Source of the DNA: Chthonomonadales bacterium
GTDB lineage: Bacteria; Armatimonadota; Chthonomonadetes; Chthonomonadales; CAJBBX01
Length of the DNA: 64,000 bases
Direction of reading: 5' to 3'
NCBI GenBank assembly: GCA_037443035.1
Contig: JBBIPC010000001.1
Location: 192,001 to 256,000 of the forward strand
Part shown: positions 17,389-48,186 of the stretch, in pieces
Layout: each line of letters opens with the position of its first letter
Numbering within the stretch: position 1 is the stretch's first letter
Made by a program: the position numbers and the translations under genes
The notes under the pieces: generated by a model
Seen by the model: the letters and a program-made list of their open reading frames with translations, nothing else
The model's database searches: none
Told to the model about the DNA's origin: nothing

Positions 17389-17430
17389 GGACCAGGGCTT
17401 TCCTGAGAAGGGTTACGAAAGGGTACGGCT

Positions 17431-36351: not shown

Positions 36352-37632
36352 TCAGTCCACGTCGGCGCTCTTCATGGAGCGCTCCACCACTTTCAAGAAC
36401 TCGGCGTTGCTTTTCGTATGCTTTAGACGATCGATGAGGAGTTCGGTTGCCTCCATGCCCGGAAGACCAGACAGCAGGCGTCGGAGCTGCGTTATCTTGC
36501 GTAGTGTATCCTCGTCATAGAGCAGTTCGTCATGCCTCGTGCCAGAGCGGAGGATGTCCACTGCCGGAAAGATTCGCCGGTCGGCAAGCCCGCGGTCCAG
36601 ATCCAGCTCCATGTTGCCCGTCCCCTTGAACTCCTCGAAGATGTGGTCGTCCATGCGGCTTCCCGTCTCGATGAGAGCCGTCGCCAGTATCGTAAGGCTG
36701 CCGCCGTTCTCAATGTTTCGGGCGGCACCGAAGAACCGCTTCGGACGGTAGAGCGCAGCGGGATCGAGACCACCGGAAAGCGTCCTTCCGCTGGGGTTGA
36801 CCGTGAGGTTCGATGCCCTTGTATATCGTGTCAGGCTATCCATGAGCACGATGACGTCCTTACCGGACTCGACAAGCCTCTTGGCCTGCTCCAACACGAT
36901 CTCGGCAACGCGCATGTGATTCTCGGGGGTCTCATCGAACGTGGAGCTGATGACTTCGCCTTTCACTGAACGTCGAATGTCGGTCACTTCTTCTGGACGC
37001 TCGTCAATGAGTAGTACCAGGAGCACCATCTCGGGATGATTAGCCGCCACGGCGTTGGCCACGGTCTTGAGCAAGGTCGTTTTCCCCGCCTTCGGCGGCG
37101 CCACGATCATCCCACGCTGTCCCTTGCCGATGGGCGCAATAATGTCGATCAGCCGCCCAGCGATCTCGCCTTGCGTGGTTTCCAGGACGATTCGCTCATT
37201 GGGGTAGATAGGAACCAGGTCGTCGAAGCTCGTTCTCCCGCGGGCGACTTCCGGATCGAGGTCATTGACCTGCTCCACGCGCAGAAGGCCGTAGTACTTC
37301 TCAGAGTCCTTGGGAGGGCGCGCCTGACCCGACACCTGGTCGCCCGTGCGCAGGCCGAATCTCTTGATCTGCGTCTGGGACACATAGATGTCGTCGGCTC
37401 GAGGCGTGAAATCGTTTCTCCTCAAGAAACCCCACCCCTCAGGCAGGATCTCGAGCACACCCTTCACGGACATCGCCTGACTGCGATCGCTCGCGTGGTC
37501 GCCTTGCTGGCGAGCTCCGTCGTCACGGTTCTGGCTTTCCGTTGTTACGGCCAGGTCGTCCACGGCGACAGGATCCGGTTGTGGAGGCACGGGAGCATGG
37601 TCGGCCTCCGGCTTGCGATTGCGAGAAGACAT
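36352..37632 (-). CDS. rho: transcription termination factor Rho
   Basis: [54 protein letters not shown]. Confidence 0.97.
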
Positions 37633-37697
37633 AGATGTGCGTGACCTCTGTGAGGCAGATTTCGATGACTGTCCTGCGCCCTGCGCGCGAATGCGTC

Positions 37698-38240
37698 TCA
37701 CGTGTTCACCACCCCGATGTATGGGAGATTGCGGTACAAGCCGCGATCGTCGAGGCCGTACCCTACTACGAACTGATCTTCCACTACGAACCCGCAATAC
37801 TCGACCGGCACTGCGTACCTCCGTCTGGACGGCTTGGACAGCAGCGCACACGTGGCTACGGTCGCGGCTCCGCGCTGCATCAGCAGAGAGCGGATCTCGC
37901 GCAATGTCAATCCCGTATCCACAATGTCTTCGACGATAAGCACGTGCCTGTCTTTCACGGATCGCTCTATGTCCAGCCGGATCTGGACATCTCCGCTCGA
38001 CGTGCGGCACATGCCGTAGGACTTCACAACCATGACATCCACTTCGACAGGCACGGTGATGTGCCGCACCAGATCGCTCACGAACGGCAAGGCGCCCAGC
38101 AATAGCCCCACAACCACCAGATCGCGCCCAGCGTAGTCTCGTGAGATGGCTTCCCCCAGCTCCCCTACCCTTTTCGAGATCGCCTCCGCCGTGATCAGGA
38201 GATCGGGAGTCTGGTTTCGGCCTGCGGTCAGATCGGTCAT
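37698..38240 (-). CDS. hpt: hypoxanthine phosphoribosyltransferase
   Basis: [36 protein letters not shown] overlap with guaA. Confidence 0.95.
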
Positions 38241-43868: not shown

Positions 43869-44198
43869 ATGATCTATCGTAGCATGGGAGCGAGTCTGAG
43901 GGGACCAGCACGGCTGTCCGTCCTGCTTGCGGCGATCTGTACCTTTCTGATCGCTCTAGCAGGCAGTTTCGGACACACGCACCGTTCGGACGGCGGTGCA
44001 ACCTCGTCCGTACGGGCGGAGGGCCATGGCTGTGTGGCGTGTTCCCTCTTGGGCTTCGAAAGGCCGCCGATCGAAGATCGTCCCTCCTCTCAGGGACCAC
44101 TGATTTGGGCAGCGATAGATAGCCCCCTCCGCACCGACGCACCGACCCTCTCGGTCGCGCACCCTCCAACCCTCCGAGGCCCCCCTACCCTTTCGTAA
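43869..44198 (+). CDS. DUF2946-like leader peptide with HxH, CxxC and C-terminal RGPP (start ATG 43869 or 43884)
   Basis: RLSVLLAAICTFLIALAGSFG-HTH...GHGCVAC...Pro-rich linker...LRGPPTLS*. Confidence 0.75.
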   Translation: MIYRSMGASLRGPARLSVLLAAICTFLIALAGSFGHTHRSDGGATSSVRAEGHGCVACSLLGFERPPIEDRPSSQGPLIWAAIDSPLRTDAPTLSVAHPPTLRGPPTLS

Positions 44199-44300
44199 TG
44201 CAGTCCACCTGGTAGCCGGTTCACCTGGTTCCGGCCCAGCCTGATGGTGGAGCCACGCTAGCTGCACGCTAAGCACTTCGATCTGCTAAACGAAAGGGTA
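44186..44300 (+). promoter_or_regulatory. putative SD-sequestering RNA structure (translational attenuator)
   Basis: TACCCTTTCGT (44186-44196) is the exact reverse complement of ACGAAAGGGTA (44290-44300), which holds the SD for ATG 44309; nested stems TGCAG/CTGCA, TCCACC/GGTGGA, GCCGG/CCGGC. Confidence 0.7.
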
Positions 44301-44308
44301 CGAAACAC

Positions 44309-45598
44309 ATGTCTGCTTGTCTCCAGCGCATGGCGACTTGCGCCATGCTCCTGCTTGCGACATTCGTTCCAGTCAGAGCGGATGAAGAACAGGGCCTCGA
44401 GAAGGTGGTGGCCGACCTTCGGAAGGTAGTCGCAGAACAACAGAAACTCATCGCCGAGCTCCAAGACCGGGTTAGGCGCTTGGAGAGCACTAGAAATGGC
44501 GAAACCGAGGAGATCCCGATCCCGCCTGTCGAGATACCGGAGCAGACCCCCGCAACGGTCTCGAGACCAGCTCCCTCCAGCTTCATGCCGGACTTCGCCG
44601 TCATCGGCAACCACCGTGGGACATTCCTTGTCCCGAGGGGATATGACGCACGGAATAGGTTCCAGTTAAGCGAGCTGGAGCTCGCCCTACAGCAACCGAT
44701 CTACACCGGGATGAACTTCTATGCCACGATTGCCGGTGGTGCTGATGCCGGATTCGGTATGGCGGTGGAAGAAGGGTATGTGACGCTGTCACGTCCGTTC
44801 AAGCTGCCCGTGGATGCCGTTGTGGGTAAGCGGCGGATGCAGTTCGGCAAGACGAACCAGCTCCACCCGCACCAATGGCGCTTTGTCGATGCCCCAGCAC
44901 CAATCGCGGCGTTTCTCGGCGAAGAAGGTCTGTTCGGCAACGGCGCATCCGTGAATTACACTCTTCCCAGCCGGAATACGTTCGTGAATCTGGAACTGGG
45001 TCTGTGGGGAGCGTCGAGCGCTCATCCCCACGAACACAGCGACACTGCGGACACCCATGCATACGAGCTTGGCGCGGGATTCGCGGGAGACATGCCCGTG
45101 GGGCGCCTATGGGTGTCACGATCCCTCTCGCCCGCGTCGGAGGTCGAGCTCGGAGCTAGTCACGCCCTAGGCAAGGGTGAAAACGGCGATCCCATTCGCC
45201 TAACAGGGCTGGACCTAACCTATCGAGGATTCCCCGGGACTTTCAGCCGGTATCAAGCACAGGGTGAGATCTTCTGGCACGCCCGAAACGACCGTACCGG
45301 TGGCACGGGTACTCACACTCGGTCTGGCCACTTCGCACTTCTAACTTACTCTCCAAACCAGTACTTCGAATATGGCCTGCGGTACGACAACACCCGGTAC
45401 CCCTGGCCCATCGAGGGAAGGGATCAGAGCCTCTCGCTCATCCTCACCAATCGCTTGAGCGAGGCTACGCTCGTACGGCTCCAGTACAAGTTCGGTGACC
45501 GCACCAGCGACGTTTTCTTGCCGGCAAGACGCGGCTACAGCGAGGTCTTCCTCCAGTTCATCTGGGGAGCCGGCTCCCACACACACCCGCTCCAATGA
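44309..45598 (+). CDS. putative outer-membrane beta-barrel metal porin with N-terminal coiled coil
   Basis: Signal peptide, coiled coil, alternating beta strands, NQLHPHQW, His-rich loop HPHEHSDTADTH, C-terminal FLQFIWGAGSHTHPLQ. Confidence 0.75.
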   Translation: MSACLQRMATCAMLLLATFVPVRADEEQGLEKVVADLRKVVAEQQKLIAELQDRVRRLESTRNGETEEIPIPPVEIPEQTPATVSRPAPSSFMPDFAVIGNHRGTFLVPRGYDARNRFQLSELELALQQPIYTGMNFYATIAGGADAGFGMAVEEGYVTLSRPFKLPVDAVVGKRRMQFGKTNQLHPHQWRFVDAPAPIAAFLGEEGLFGNGASVNYTLPSRNTFVNLELGLWGASSAHPHEHSDTADTHAYELGAGFAGDMPVGRLWVSRSLSPASEVELGASHALGKGENGDPIRLTGLDLTYRGFPGTFSRYQAQGEIFWHARNDRTGGTGTHTRSGHFALLTYSPNQYFEYGLRYDNTRYPWPIEGRDQSLSLILTNRLSEATLVRLQYKFGDRTSDVFLPARRGYSEVFLQFIWGAGSHTHPLQ

Positions 45599-45614: not shown

Positions 45615-46529
45615 ATGAAACACTTGTATCACATCCTTACCCTCGGTGCACTCGCTGTCTTGGGGGCCGCTGCTGCCGCCGCACCGTTAAAGGTTGTTAC
45701 CACGGACACGAATCTGGCTGATATTGCCTCGAAGGTGGGGGGCGACCGTGTTCGAGTGGAGTCTTTGAGTCGCGGCACGGACGACCCGCATCAGGTCGAA
45801 CCGCGTCCTTCTATGGTTGTGAAGCTCGCGTCCGCGGATGTCTTTGCGCGCATCGGCATGGATCTTGACCTTTGGGCCGATGGCATTCTCGAACGATGCG
45901 GCAACCGAAAAGTGCAGAAGGGCGGCCCCGGATATGCCGACTGTTCAGCGAACATCCGCGTGCTGGAAGTCCCAACCACACGGCTCGACCCATCCATGGG
46001 CGACATTCACGTCTATGGCAATCCTCATTATCTGCTCGACCCCGCCAACGGTATCGTAGCTGCCGGTAACATCGCAGCTGCTCTGATACGCGTGGATCCT
46101 GCCGGACAGGCGTACTACCGCAAGCGGTTCCTGGATTTTGGCGAGGCCATGAAACAGCATCTCGAAAAATGGCAGAAGGCCCTCGCAGGATTGAAGGGCC
46201 AGTCCATTGTCGTCTACCACCGCAATTGGATCTACTTCACCAAGCGCTTCGGTCTTGTGGAGTTTAGCGCTATCGAACCTAAGCCTGGGGTGCCGCCGTC
46301 ACCCGGGTACGTACAGGGCCTGATCCGATTGATGAAGGCGCATACCGTCAGGATCGTCCTTTGCGAGACCTTCCGGAGCCACCAATATCCTGACATGATC
46401 GCCGCCCAGACAGGTGCTCGCGCTGTGTTCGTCCCACTTGCGGTCGGCGGCGAGGCAGCAGCAACGGACTACTTCGCACTGTTCGACGTCATCACGTCGA
46501 GACTCGCATCTGGCGCCAGGCAGCCGTGA
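45615..46529 (+). CDS. metal ABC transporter substrate-binding protein (ZnuA/cluster A-I)
   Basis: Signal peptide; DPHQVE, GDIHVYGNPHYLLDP, YH, EPKPGVPPS. Confidence 0.88.
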   Translation: MKHLYHILTLGALAVLGAAAAAAPLKVVTTDTNLADIASKVGGDRVRVESLSRGTDDPHQVEPRPSMVVKLASADVFARIGMDLDLWADGILERCGNRKVQKGGPGYADCSANIRVLEVPTTRLDPSMGDIHVYGNPHYLLDPANGIVAAGNIAAALIRVDPAGQAYYRKRFLDFGEAMKQHLEKWQKALAGLKGQSIVVYHRNWIYFTKRFGLVEFSAIEPKPGVPPSPGYVQGLIRLMKAHTVRIVLCETFRSHQYPDMIAAQTGARAVFVPLAVGGEAAATDYFALFDVITSRLASGARQP

Positions 46530-47290
46530 ACGCACTGATTTCCTTCGAGCACGCTCGTCTTGGATATCGCGAGCCCGTACTGGACGATGTCTGTCTGGAT
46601 GTGTTTCCGGGAGACTACCTCGGCATCGTTGGACCGAACGGCGCTGGCAAGACGACACTCTTGAGAGCCATCCTGGGACTGATCCGGCCACTGGCCGGGT
46701 CAGTCCGAAGCCCGGGTCCGGAACACCGCATTGGTTACGTGCCCCAGCGAGACACGCTCGACTCTCTCTTTCCTCTTAGTGTGCTCGACATTGTGCTCAT
46801 GGGCCTCTATCACACTTTGGGTCCAGTCCGTCGCCCAGGACCCAAGGAGCGCCGTTCAGCCATGGATGTTCTCGAGGATCTCGGTATAGGCGATCTGGCC
46901 AGTCGGAGCTACCGGAGCCTCTCTGGGGGCCAGAAACAGCGATGCATCATTGCCAGAGCGTTGATATCGAAGCCGGAGGTCCTCGTACTCGATGAGCCTA
47001 CGAATGGGATGGACTTGCCGGCCGAGCATGGCATCGTGAGTCTCATAGACCACCTCCACGCAGAGCACTCGCTGACTGTCCTCTTCGTCAGTCACATGCT
47101 GCATGTGGTTCTGAACCACGCCAGTCGCCTGGCCATCGTCGGGGACGGCAGGGTTGTTACGCTGGATGCAAGCACGGATTCGCTAGGGGATCAGTTGGCG
47201 GCCGTCTACGGAATGCCTGTGGACGTGCATGATGTACGGGGCAGCGTCGTCGTGCTGGCTCGGCAACAGCCGGATGGGGGTTCGACATGA
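46526..47290 (+). CDS. metal ABC transporter ATPase (ZnuC-like)
   Basis: GPNGAGKTT, IGYVPQ, LSGGQKQR, LDEPT, VSH. Confidence 0.9.
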   Translation: MNALISFEHARLGYREPVLDDVCLDVFPGDYLGIVGPNGAGKTTLLRAILGLIRPLAGSVRSPGPEHRIGYVPQRDTLDSLFPLSVLDIVLMGLYHTLGPVRRPGPKERRSAMDVLEDLGIGDLASRSYRSLSGGQKQRCIIARALISKPEVLVLDEPTNGMDLPAEHGIVSLIDHLHAEHSLTVLFVSHMLHVVLNHASRLAIVGDGRVVTLDASTDSLGDQLAAVYGMPVDVHDVRGSVVVLARQQPDGGST

Positions 47291-48186
47291 GTTGGCAGGA
47301 TGTCTGGGCAGGTCTGCATCTGAACTCGACGGGCGTGATGGCCGCGGTGCTAGTGGGGTTGGTGTGCGCGTATCTCGGCGTCTTCGTGGTCCTGAAGCGC
47401 GTTGTGTTCGTCGGTCTGACGCTCGCGCAACTGTCTGGAGCGGGCATCGGGCTTGCCTTTCTGCTCGGGCCTGTTCTGGGAGCCCTTGGTCATCGCTATG
47501 CCCACTCGGTCTGGCCCGTGGGCCAAGTGGGTACTAGCCTCGAGTGGATTGCGGCAAGACCTCTATGCATCTCGCTCGTGGTCACACTGCTGGGGATCTG
47601 GCTTCTTGCCAGGCACTCCTGGTCTCACGTGGTCCCACGCGACAGTATCGTCGGAGCTGCTTACGTGGCGGCGTATGGCATGACCCTGCTGTTCATCCTT
47701 CGTAGCCCCAAAGGCATGGAAGACGTGCGGGAATTGCTCGATGGCAGCGTCATTGCGACGTCTCCGGCAGATCTGATGATGCTAGCCTTGGTCCTCGGCA
47801 CGGTGCTCGTTATTCATGCGTTGTTCTACAAGCAGCATCTGTTTGTCGCCTTCGACCCGGAGGCTGCAGCCGCCCAGTCGTACCATGTCGCGGGATGGGA
47901 AGCCCTGTTCTATGTGACGCTAGGAGTCGCCATAACAGTCGCCATGCGCCAGGCAGGGATCCTGCTCGTATTCGCTTATCTGGTGGTCCCACCCATCGTG
48001 GGACTGGTCGCTGCCAGACGTATGGGCAGTGTGCTCGGCATTGCGCTTCTGAGCGCAGGTCTCTCGGCTATCCTTGGCTTCGTCTTAGCGCTGAAATGGG
48101 ATCTCCCGCTGAGCCCACCGACAATCGGCGTGGGCCTCGGCCTGTTAGCGGTAGCTGCCCTGGCGAGACGTCGCTCGCCTGCGTGA
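47287..48186 (+). CDS. metal ABC transporter permease (ZnuB/ABC-3)
   Basis: YLGVFVVLKR, FDPE, GILLV; multiple TM helices. Confidence 0.88.
   Translation: MSWQDVWAGLHLNSTGVMAAVLVGLVCAYLGVFVVLKRVVFVGLTLAQLSGAGIGLAFLLGPVLGALGHRYAHSVWPVGQVGTSLEWIAARPLCISLVVTLLGIWLLARHSWSHVVPRDSIVGAAYVAAYGMTLLFILRSPKGMEDVRELLDGSVIATSPADLMMLALVLGTVLVIHALFYKQHLFVAFDPEAAAAQSYHVAGWEALFYVTLGVAITVAMRQAGILLVFAYLVVPPIVGLVAARRMGSVLGIALLSAGLSAILGFVLALKWDLPLSPPTIGVGLGLLAVAALARRRSPA

Follow-up and report, generated by a model that had tools for sequence, protein, structure and literature searches.

A candidate metal-sensing arrest leader with an anti-Shine-Dalgarno helix upstream of a porin and ZnuABC-type importer operon in Armatimonadota

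In the genome of a Chthonomonadales bacterium, genes for an outer-membrane porin and a ZnuABC-type metal importer are preceded by a short reading frame that ends in LRGPPTLS. The locus raises the question of whether this frame controls the operon and, if so, what it senses and by which step. A sequence-only reading of the window (the whole stretch of DNA analysed, 64 000 nucleotides) had proposed that a ribosome stalled at RGPP would cover an anti-Shine-Dalgarno (anti-SD) sequence and free the porin start. On the evidence given below, we consider it probable that the leader acts in cis as a metal-sensing ribosome-arrest peptide and controls translation of the porin-ZnuA-ZnuC-ZnuB operon.

Leader, operon and conservation

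The locus comprises the following features.

43869 to 44198, + strand: leader ORF, predicted CruR/CutF-like arrest peptide of 109 aa with C-terminal LRGPPTLS; stop codon at 44196 to 44198
43914 to 43964, + strand: hydrophobic signal/anchor segment, residues 16 to 32, mean hydropathy 2.5, preceded by basic residues
43974 to 43982, + strand: His36-Thr-His38, putative metal ligands; His36 invariant in 17/17 family loci
44031 to 44042, + strand: Cys55-x-x-Cys58, putative metal ligands, invariant in 17/17 family loci
44043 to 44174, + strand: 44-residue linker of fixed length and variable sequence; 3' part C-rich, a possible Rho loading site
44175 to 44186, + strand: R103-G-P-P106, predicted RGPP arrest motif; stall predicted with codon 44181 to 44183 in the P site
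44309 to 45598, + strand: outer-membrane porin with signal peptide, coiled coil, 16 predicted barrel strands and His-containing loops
45615 to 46529, + strand: ZnuA-family binding protein with His59, His138 and His202 and no acidic fourth ligand
46526 to 47290, + strand: ABC ATPase, AztA/ZnuC/MntA-like (Pfam/NCBIfam)
47287 to 48186, + strand: ABC-3 permease, ZnuB/AztB-like (Pfam/NCBIfam)

The reading frame, hydrophobic stretch, metal-type motifs and RGPP codons described in the sequence-only reading lie where it had placed them; its 'HTH' denotes His-Thr-His and not helix-turn-helix. A second possible start, the in-frame ATG at 43884, would give a leader of 104 aa, and three residues follow RGPP. 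The predicted P-site codon was transferred from the CruR toeprint, in which the codon in the P site is that of the first Pro (PMC12992588). The topology is predicted to be N-in, C-out; the hydropathy of the anchor is at least 1.6 in 70 of the 74 leaders compared, and positive charge is higher before the anchor than after it in 69.

These 74 loci consist of 17 from the home family and 57 from elsewhere in Armatimonadota. The family loci were obtained from 41 related genomes, 18 of which gave a porin match, after removal of one marginal match and four duplicate loci. A leader lies upstream of the porin in 17/17 of them; its only invariant residues are H, C, C, R, P and P at an overall identity of 17-29%, and the Cys-to-Arg distance is 44-46 in 17/17. 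The phylum survey covered 301 Armatimonadota genomes, 114 of which match the porin profile, and 81 loci outside the home family were examined, drawn from the stronger matches. A leader is present in 62 of these. The standard form with an assignable porin start accounts for 57 (porin starts were picked by best SD and signal-like N terminus); three further standard leaders were excluded (no start assigned; a long read-through tail; an intervening gene) and two carry RSPP or RDPP. Of the remainder, one is doubtful, two are cut by contig ends and 16 have no leader. The Cys-to-Arg distance is 43-46 in 57/57, the loci having been selected within 38-55. H-x-[H/C] occurs in 69/74 leaders and at least one His in 74/74. 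The regulatory leader is real and conserved across the family.

The RSPP and RDPP leaders retain all other features and are natural variants of the arrest motif. In another genome, which also holds a Fur-family ortholog, the leader frame extends far beyond RAPP; this leader is possibly decaying. A search with the leader profile returned 274 proteins at E <= 0.001. CxxC and R[AG]PP are 43-48 residues apart (Cys to Arg) in 143 of the best 150 of the 274 matches and 44-45 apart in 124, a spacing which the profile itself favours; every one of the 143 matches with both motifs falls within 43-48, and the His-to-Cys spacing varies widely in the same matches.

The leader shares the traits by which CruR/CutF-like peptides are described: fewer than 150 aa with an export signal/anchor, a Cys/His motif, a Pro-Pro motif in the last 15 residues, a spacing of about 45 residues (44 here) and a same-strand metal-homeostasis operon downstream. 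It is not a formal DUF2946 member. Pfam and NCBIfam gave no match for the window leader, and the DUF2946 (PF11162) search proposed in the sequence-only reading likewise returned none for it. Three of the 17 family members match this model weakly (best E 0.051, below the cutoff of 23.7 bits), and among the 79 scanned of 150 listed relatives 14 match at E <= 0.1, the best at 23.0 bits and none above the cutoff. The Atlas feature match of the leader to a 70% DUF2946 cluster is 0.95.

A -10-like hexamer lies 4-9 nt before the leader ATG in 11/74 loci, against 0/74 porin starts and 5/872 internal ATGs; an SD-like site is present at 21/74 leader starts, and 45/74 have neither. The idea that the window leader is read from a leaderless mRNA was set aside, TATGAT lying 10 nt before the ATG at 43884.

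The operon content is as the sequence-only reading had described it, with family matches for ZnuA, the ATPase and the ABC-3 permease and a fold match for the porin. The porin model (mean pLDDT 66) matches DcaP, MOMP, AlgE, OprP and Omp32 (E ~1e-8 to 1e-7); the porin has no Pfam or NCBIfam family match, and no relatives were found in viral contigs or plasmids. The 16 closest public loci are mostly from Chthonomonadales or Chthonomonas (Armatimonadota), with ZnuA as the next gene in 16/16. Two porin homologs carry an extra N-terminal carboxypeptidase-regulatory-like domain (PF13620). In one genome of the same genus (96% complete) neither porin nor leader was found and there are four Fur-family matches.

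Pairing of the arrest region with the porin Shine-Dalgarno sequence

Between the arrest motif and the porin start, three RNA features were delimited.

44186 to 44196, + strand: anti-SD arm, +6 to +16 from the P-site codon, beneath the predicted stalled ribosome
44199 to 44289, + strand: intergenic nested stems joining the two arms, unconserved in length and sequence
44290 to 44300, + strand: SD arm with GAAAGGG (44292 to 44298), 10 nt before the porin ATG

The two arms are exact reverse complements over 11 bp, as had been noted from the letters, and each of the 11 pairs has an ensemble probability of 0.93-1.0. GAAAGGG is able to pair with the 16S rRNA tail of the same genome, CCUCCUUUC. When the footprint of a stalled ribosome was masked in the folding model, opening the porin SD at the window locus cost 3.4 instead of 14.3 kcal/mol. 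Region 44150-44330 has an unexceptional fold (z -1.43; 15/200 shuffles equally good), and the porin helix is one of five perfect inverted repeats in the window with arms of at least 11 nt separated by 60-200 nt. Evidence for the helix beyond chance comes from homologs. No sigma-70-like promoter or + strand terminator was seen in the intergenic region by a consensus scan, which has little power here, and Rfam at gathering score gave only tRNAs in the window and no cis-regulatory RNA.

The sequence of the SD arm recurs elsewhere in the window, as had also been pointed out before: the 11-mer is found at 17415-17425, upstream of a pilT-like gene (name read from sequence) with a TTG start. The identity to the porin SD arm extends to a 13-mer (17415-17427) with only two copies genome-wide. 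It was treated as a shared SD, since no matching anti-SD arm was seen at the pilT-like gene.

The intergenic regions range from 29 to 376 nt across the loci and cannot be aligned, so the pairing was tested without alignment: the bases around the arrest codons of each locus were paired with the SD region of the same locus and with those of the other loci. The duplex energy over the 74 loci is -17.3 kcal/mol for own pairs and -11.7 kcal/mol for cross pairs. The family loci (-16.7 against -11.8 kcal/mol) and the 57 others (-17.5 against -11.8 kcal/mol) give the same picture, with 0/20000 permutations in either set. Own pairing beats composition shuffles at the 5% level in 52/74 loci (12/17 family, 40/57 other). 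Since kin are not independent, one locus per family was also drawn (18 families, 200 draws), and no draw was matched in 1000 permutations. With windows offset by -90, -60, -30 or +30 nt the own-cross difference is at most 0.75 kcal/mol, and when a profile is slid along the leader, pairing with the SD region peaks for windows that begin 0 to +7 nt from the P-site codon. The two Pro codons of R[AG]PP are CCT, which is anti-SD sequence in itself, in 41 and 36 of 74 loci; the corresponding counts in Pro-Pro pairs of the porins are 20 and 24 of 174.

With the footprint of a stalled ribosome simulated, the SD becomes cheaper to open by at least 2 kcal/mol in 54/74 loci; an upstream footprint has this effect in 1/74. 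Against a switch, 20/74 loci gain less than 2 kcal/mol and in 2/74 the best duplex lies entirely beyond +15. RNAalifold recovered the helix in one genus, with two-sided change in only 1/14 pairs, and alignment-based folding of four family loci gave no long helix, the arms being out of register; RNAalifold on MAFFT alignments is uninformative here because the intergenic regions do not align. A CutF-type output, a stem-loop over the SD that a stalled ribosome opens, was thus found in silico, and comparative support for an anti-SD switch is strong. The earlier interpretation that a stall opens the SD is supported in part, by the conserved motifs and spacing, the locus-matched pairing under the footprint, the porin fold and the ZnuABC-type importer, and the window sequence by itself is modest evidence for it; the conservation of the SD/anti-SD pair that it called for appears as stronger own pairs but as covariation in only one pair of one genus.

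Base composition bears on what the leader does to the operon. The linker is C-rich (C>G) in 71/74 loci and the intergenic region in 63/74, against 35/74 for the porin, and the GC skew is -0.53 at 44120-44197; this fits Rho control and also favours pairing with purine-rich SDs. The same arrest leader might therefore act mainly through Rho-dependent termination, as CruR does (PMC9426467), with the helix secondary, and a rho-like gene (read from sequence) is present in the window at 36352-38010. We hold this to be unlikely: complementarity is specific to each locus, exceeds both the cross-pair and the shuffle controls and is restricted to the footprint, whereas a Rho site need not match the SD flank of each locus. 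The two outputs can coexist. Under unregulated translational coupling, the helix would be opened by any ribosome passing or pausing at the leader end, and the peptide would have another function or no function. This agrees with the folding model, in which the SD is opened equally well by a ribosome at the leader stop codon and by one at RGPP (2.9 against 3.4 kcal/mol). Such coupling is nevertheless highly improbable given that proteomes show selection against R[AG]PP, a strong arrest motif (PMC12992588), and that the ligands and linker length are conserved and the linker sequence is not.

The metal probably sensed

For zinc as the metal, the gene content and alignments give fair support. We infer it from the three-His binding proteins, from the lack of a detectable Zur and from leaderless relatives that have a Fur-family repressor, a palindrome and ZIP/COG0523 genes. 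The site residues of the binding protein are conserved in 95, 94 and 93 of 95 homologous sequences (His59, His138 and His202, respectively), and Pro occupies the position of the fourth ligand in 90/95, where manganese and iron binders have an acidic ligand. A three-His site without an acidic fourth ligand marks zinc binders, and the pattern was seen when the binding protein was aligned with the zinc protein 2ov1 as against YfeA. A His2-Cys2 set, as in the leader, suits zinc. Related CxxC-R[AG]PP leaders in porin-lacking relatives (four loci, three genomes) head TolC-, ExbB/ExbD-, TonB-receptor- and DUF1559-like genes (names read from sequence), so zinc cannot be deduced from the peptide by itself.

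A search of the window genome (100% complete) for Zur, ZIP and CobW_C genes found none, and no match to DtxR/MntR passed the cutoff. Its only Fur-family gene is PerR-like and precedes a peroxiredoxin-like gene (contig C13, 90301-90642). Two Nramp genes are present, which could cover manganese uptake. A second ZnuA-ATPase-permease operon (contig C6, 179680-182400), with a short His-rich loop, yielded neither leader nor regulator.

In one other family, each of the seven leaderless porin loci comes from a genome that has a single Fur-family ortholog (61-100% to the query); in 6/7 this gene is located in the operon region beside ZIP, ZntA-like, COG0523 or MerC genes. Among the eight leader-bearing genomes of the same family, five have no Fur-family gene (63-93% complete), one has only a distant one and two have the ortholog elsewhere. 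A 16 bp palindrome precedes the porin, ZIP or repressor gene in 5/6 longer regions taken from this family, a count made in the same loci from which the pattern was derived; it was found upstream of the porin in 0/74 leader loci. The palindrome is similar to the Zur box of actinobacteria (PMC5472717), which is one base shorter, and NCBIfam does not class the Fur-family substitute as Zur. Five leaderless operons combine the Fur-family gene, the palindrome and ZIP, COG0523, MerC or ZntA-like genes, and such operons probably form a Zur-like regulon with an even-symmetry box. The swap of leader and repressor was probably one event or two. In Vibrio parahaemolyticus a cluster of a 'zinc-regulated receptor', ZnuA and ZnuB is strongly induced by zinc starvation (PMC9817125). 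Counting against the proposed switch, a zrgD knockout of V. cholerae showed no growth effect under zinc chelation (PMC9820375).

The same translational switch could respond to manganese, cobalt, nickel, iron or copper. AztC and MntC models give the binding protein similar scores, YfeA and MntC are among its top solved relatives and it has no long His-rich loop; CruR and CutF sense copper; and the genome has no MntR/DtxR above cutoff and a second ZnuA-type operon without a leader. We nonetheless think another metal rather unlikely in view of the three-His site with no acidic fourth ligand, the ZIP, COG0523 and ZntA-like neighbours in leaderless relatives and the His2-Cys2 set. That the leader reports on secretion through a SecM-like pull, or on disulfide formation through Cys oxidation, and not on metal, would agree with the signal/anchor in nearly all leaders, with an exported outer-membrane protein as first downstream product and with RAPP leaders also preceding sec and Dsb genes (PMC12992588). 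The invariant His besides the Cys residues, the fixed CruR-like spacing, the metal-importer context and the replacement by a Fur-family repressor make it improbable, and the genes downstream are a porin and a metal ABC importer, not sec or yidC as for a Sec/YidC monitor.

Proposed mechanism and relation to known systems

Arrest at RAPP/RGPP, the stall position and metal sensing by CxxC are carried over from the published relatives. In the mechanism that we propose for the metal-sensing arrest leader, the anchor would bring the nascent chain to the translocon, the ribosome would stall at RGPP and the fixed 44-residue linker would position His-x-His and CxxC just outside the tunnel and membrane. 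When metal is scarce the stall would persist, with the ribosome covering the anti-SD, the porin SD free and the importer made; expression in metal shortage is expected because the target is an importer. Binding of metal, most likely zinc, would fold the site, and the resulting pull would release the stall, so that termination would follow four codons later and the helix would close over the SD. Rho may additionally end transcription after release.

More tentatively, in much of Armatimonadota zinc uptake may be controlled not by Zur but by a nascent-peptide His2Cys2/HisCys3 zinc site at the translocon exit, with zinc-driven folding ending the arrest and reclosing an anti-SD helix to which the Pro-Pro codons contribute part of the sequence, and with the leader evolutionarily interchangeable with a Fur-family repressor and its operator. 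If true, this would be the first zinc-sensing arrest peptide, and it would sense periplasmic rather than cytoplasmic zinc. As leader and Fur-family repressor appear to replace one another, lineages without Zur may be able to control zinc import through the ribosome. With four candidate ligands, a fixed linker and an 11 bp helix, the system is a compact test case for how metal binding alters arrest.

No demonstrated zinc-sensing arrest peptide and no account of this Armatimonadota system were found in the literature searched, mostly outside subscription journals; the searched supplements of PMC9973294 and PMC9426467 mention neither Armatimonadota nor ZnuA, and other supplements of these papers may list the family. 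The novelty claimed by the sequence-only reading was overstated in two respects: a metal leader whose stall opens an SD has been published in CutF (PMC9973294), and DUF2946/CutF-like and RAPP/RGPP leaders outside Proteobacteria have also been reported (PMC9426467, PMC9973294, PMC12992588).

Such leaders before zinc importers are already present in published tables (PMC12992588). The source data of that paper contain nine rows in which a 'zinc-regulated' receptor of 400-500 aa follows a RAPP leader, His and CxxC being present in several, and show DUF2796/ZrgA to be 269-fold enriched after RAPP leaders (137 against 2 controls). One leader that ends in RAPP is Vibrio ZrgD (DUF2607), encoded by the first gene of the zinc importer operon zrgABCDE, to which no function had been assigned (PMC12992588; PMC9817125; PMC9820375). 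These leaders belong to the same class as the present one by size, signal and motif; two ZrgD-type leaders among the rows listed have no CxxC or another spacing. The targets discussed in the accessible text of PMC12992588 are copper, TonB, Sec and Dsb, not zinc, and it contains no anti-SD analysis or metal test. SecM, ApdA, ApdP, MifM and VemP resemble the proposed leader in that force-released arrest near the C terminus unmasks a downstream SD (10.1101/2025.02.05.636593; PMC9973294), but their targets are sec/yidC genes and they lack a conserved metal site.

CruR (Bp2923) of Bordetella pertussis, a DUF2946/PF11162 protein, senses copper and controls a TonB receptor via Rho; its signal is dispensable, and metal relieves the arrest and turns uptake off (PMC9426467). 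Both CruR and the present leader are the first gene of a metal-uptake operon and have an export signal, CxxC, a C-terminal RAPP-type motif and a C-rich 3' region, with 45 residues between motifs in CruR and 44 here, and the same logic (stall on, metal off) is expected. The present leader differs in its target, a 16-strand porin and ZnuABC-type importer, in its additional conserved His-x-His/Cys and locus-matched anti-SD helix and in having no PF11162 match. In CutF of Rhodobacter capsulatus, which has CxxxC, the stalled ribosome melts a stem-loop over the SD of the next gene, and with copper the stall lasts longer and a detoxifying oxidase is switched on (PMC9973294; 10.1101/2025.02.05.636593). 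The likeness to CutF lies in an exported metal-binding leader (binding here being predicted), SD unmasking and 45 residues from metal site to stall motif; the difference lies in the helix, which spans ~110 nt here, and in the importer target, which leads us to expect the reverse polarity. CruR and CutF are the class members with a tested metal input in the covered literature, both for copper, and they differ in direction and output. By analogy with the two, the present system would unite the direction of CruR, in which metal ends the stall and uptake is turned off, with the SD unmasking of CutF, and should extend the class to zinc.
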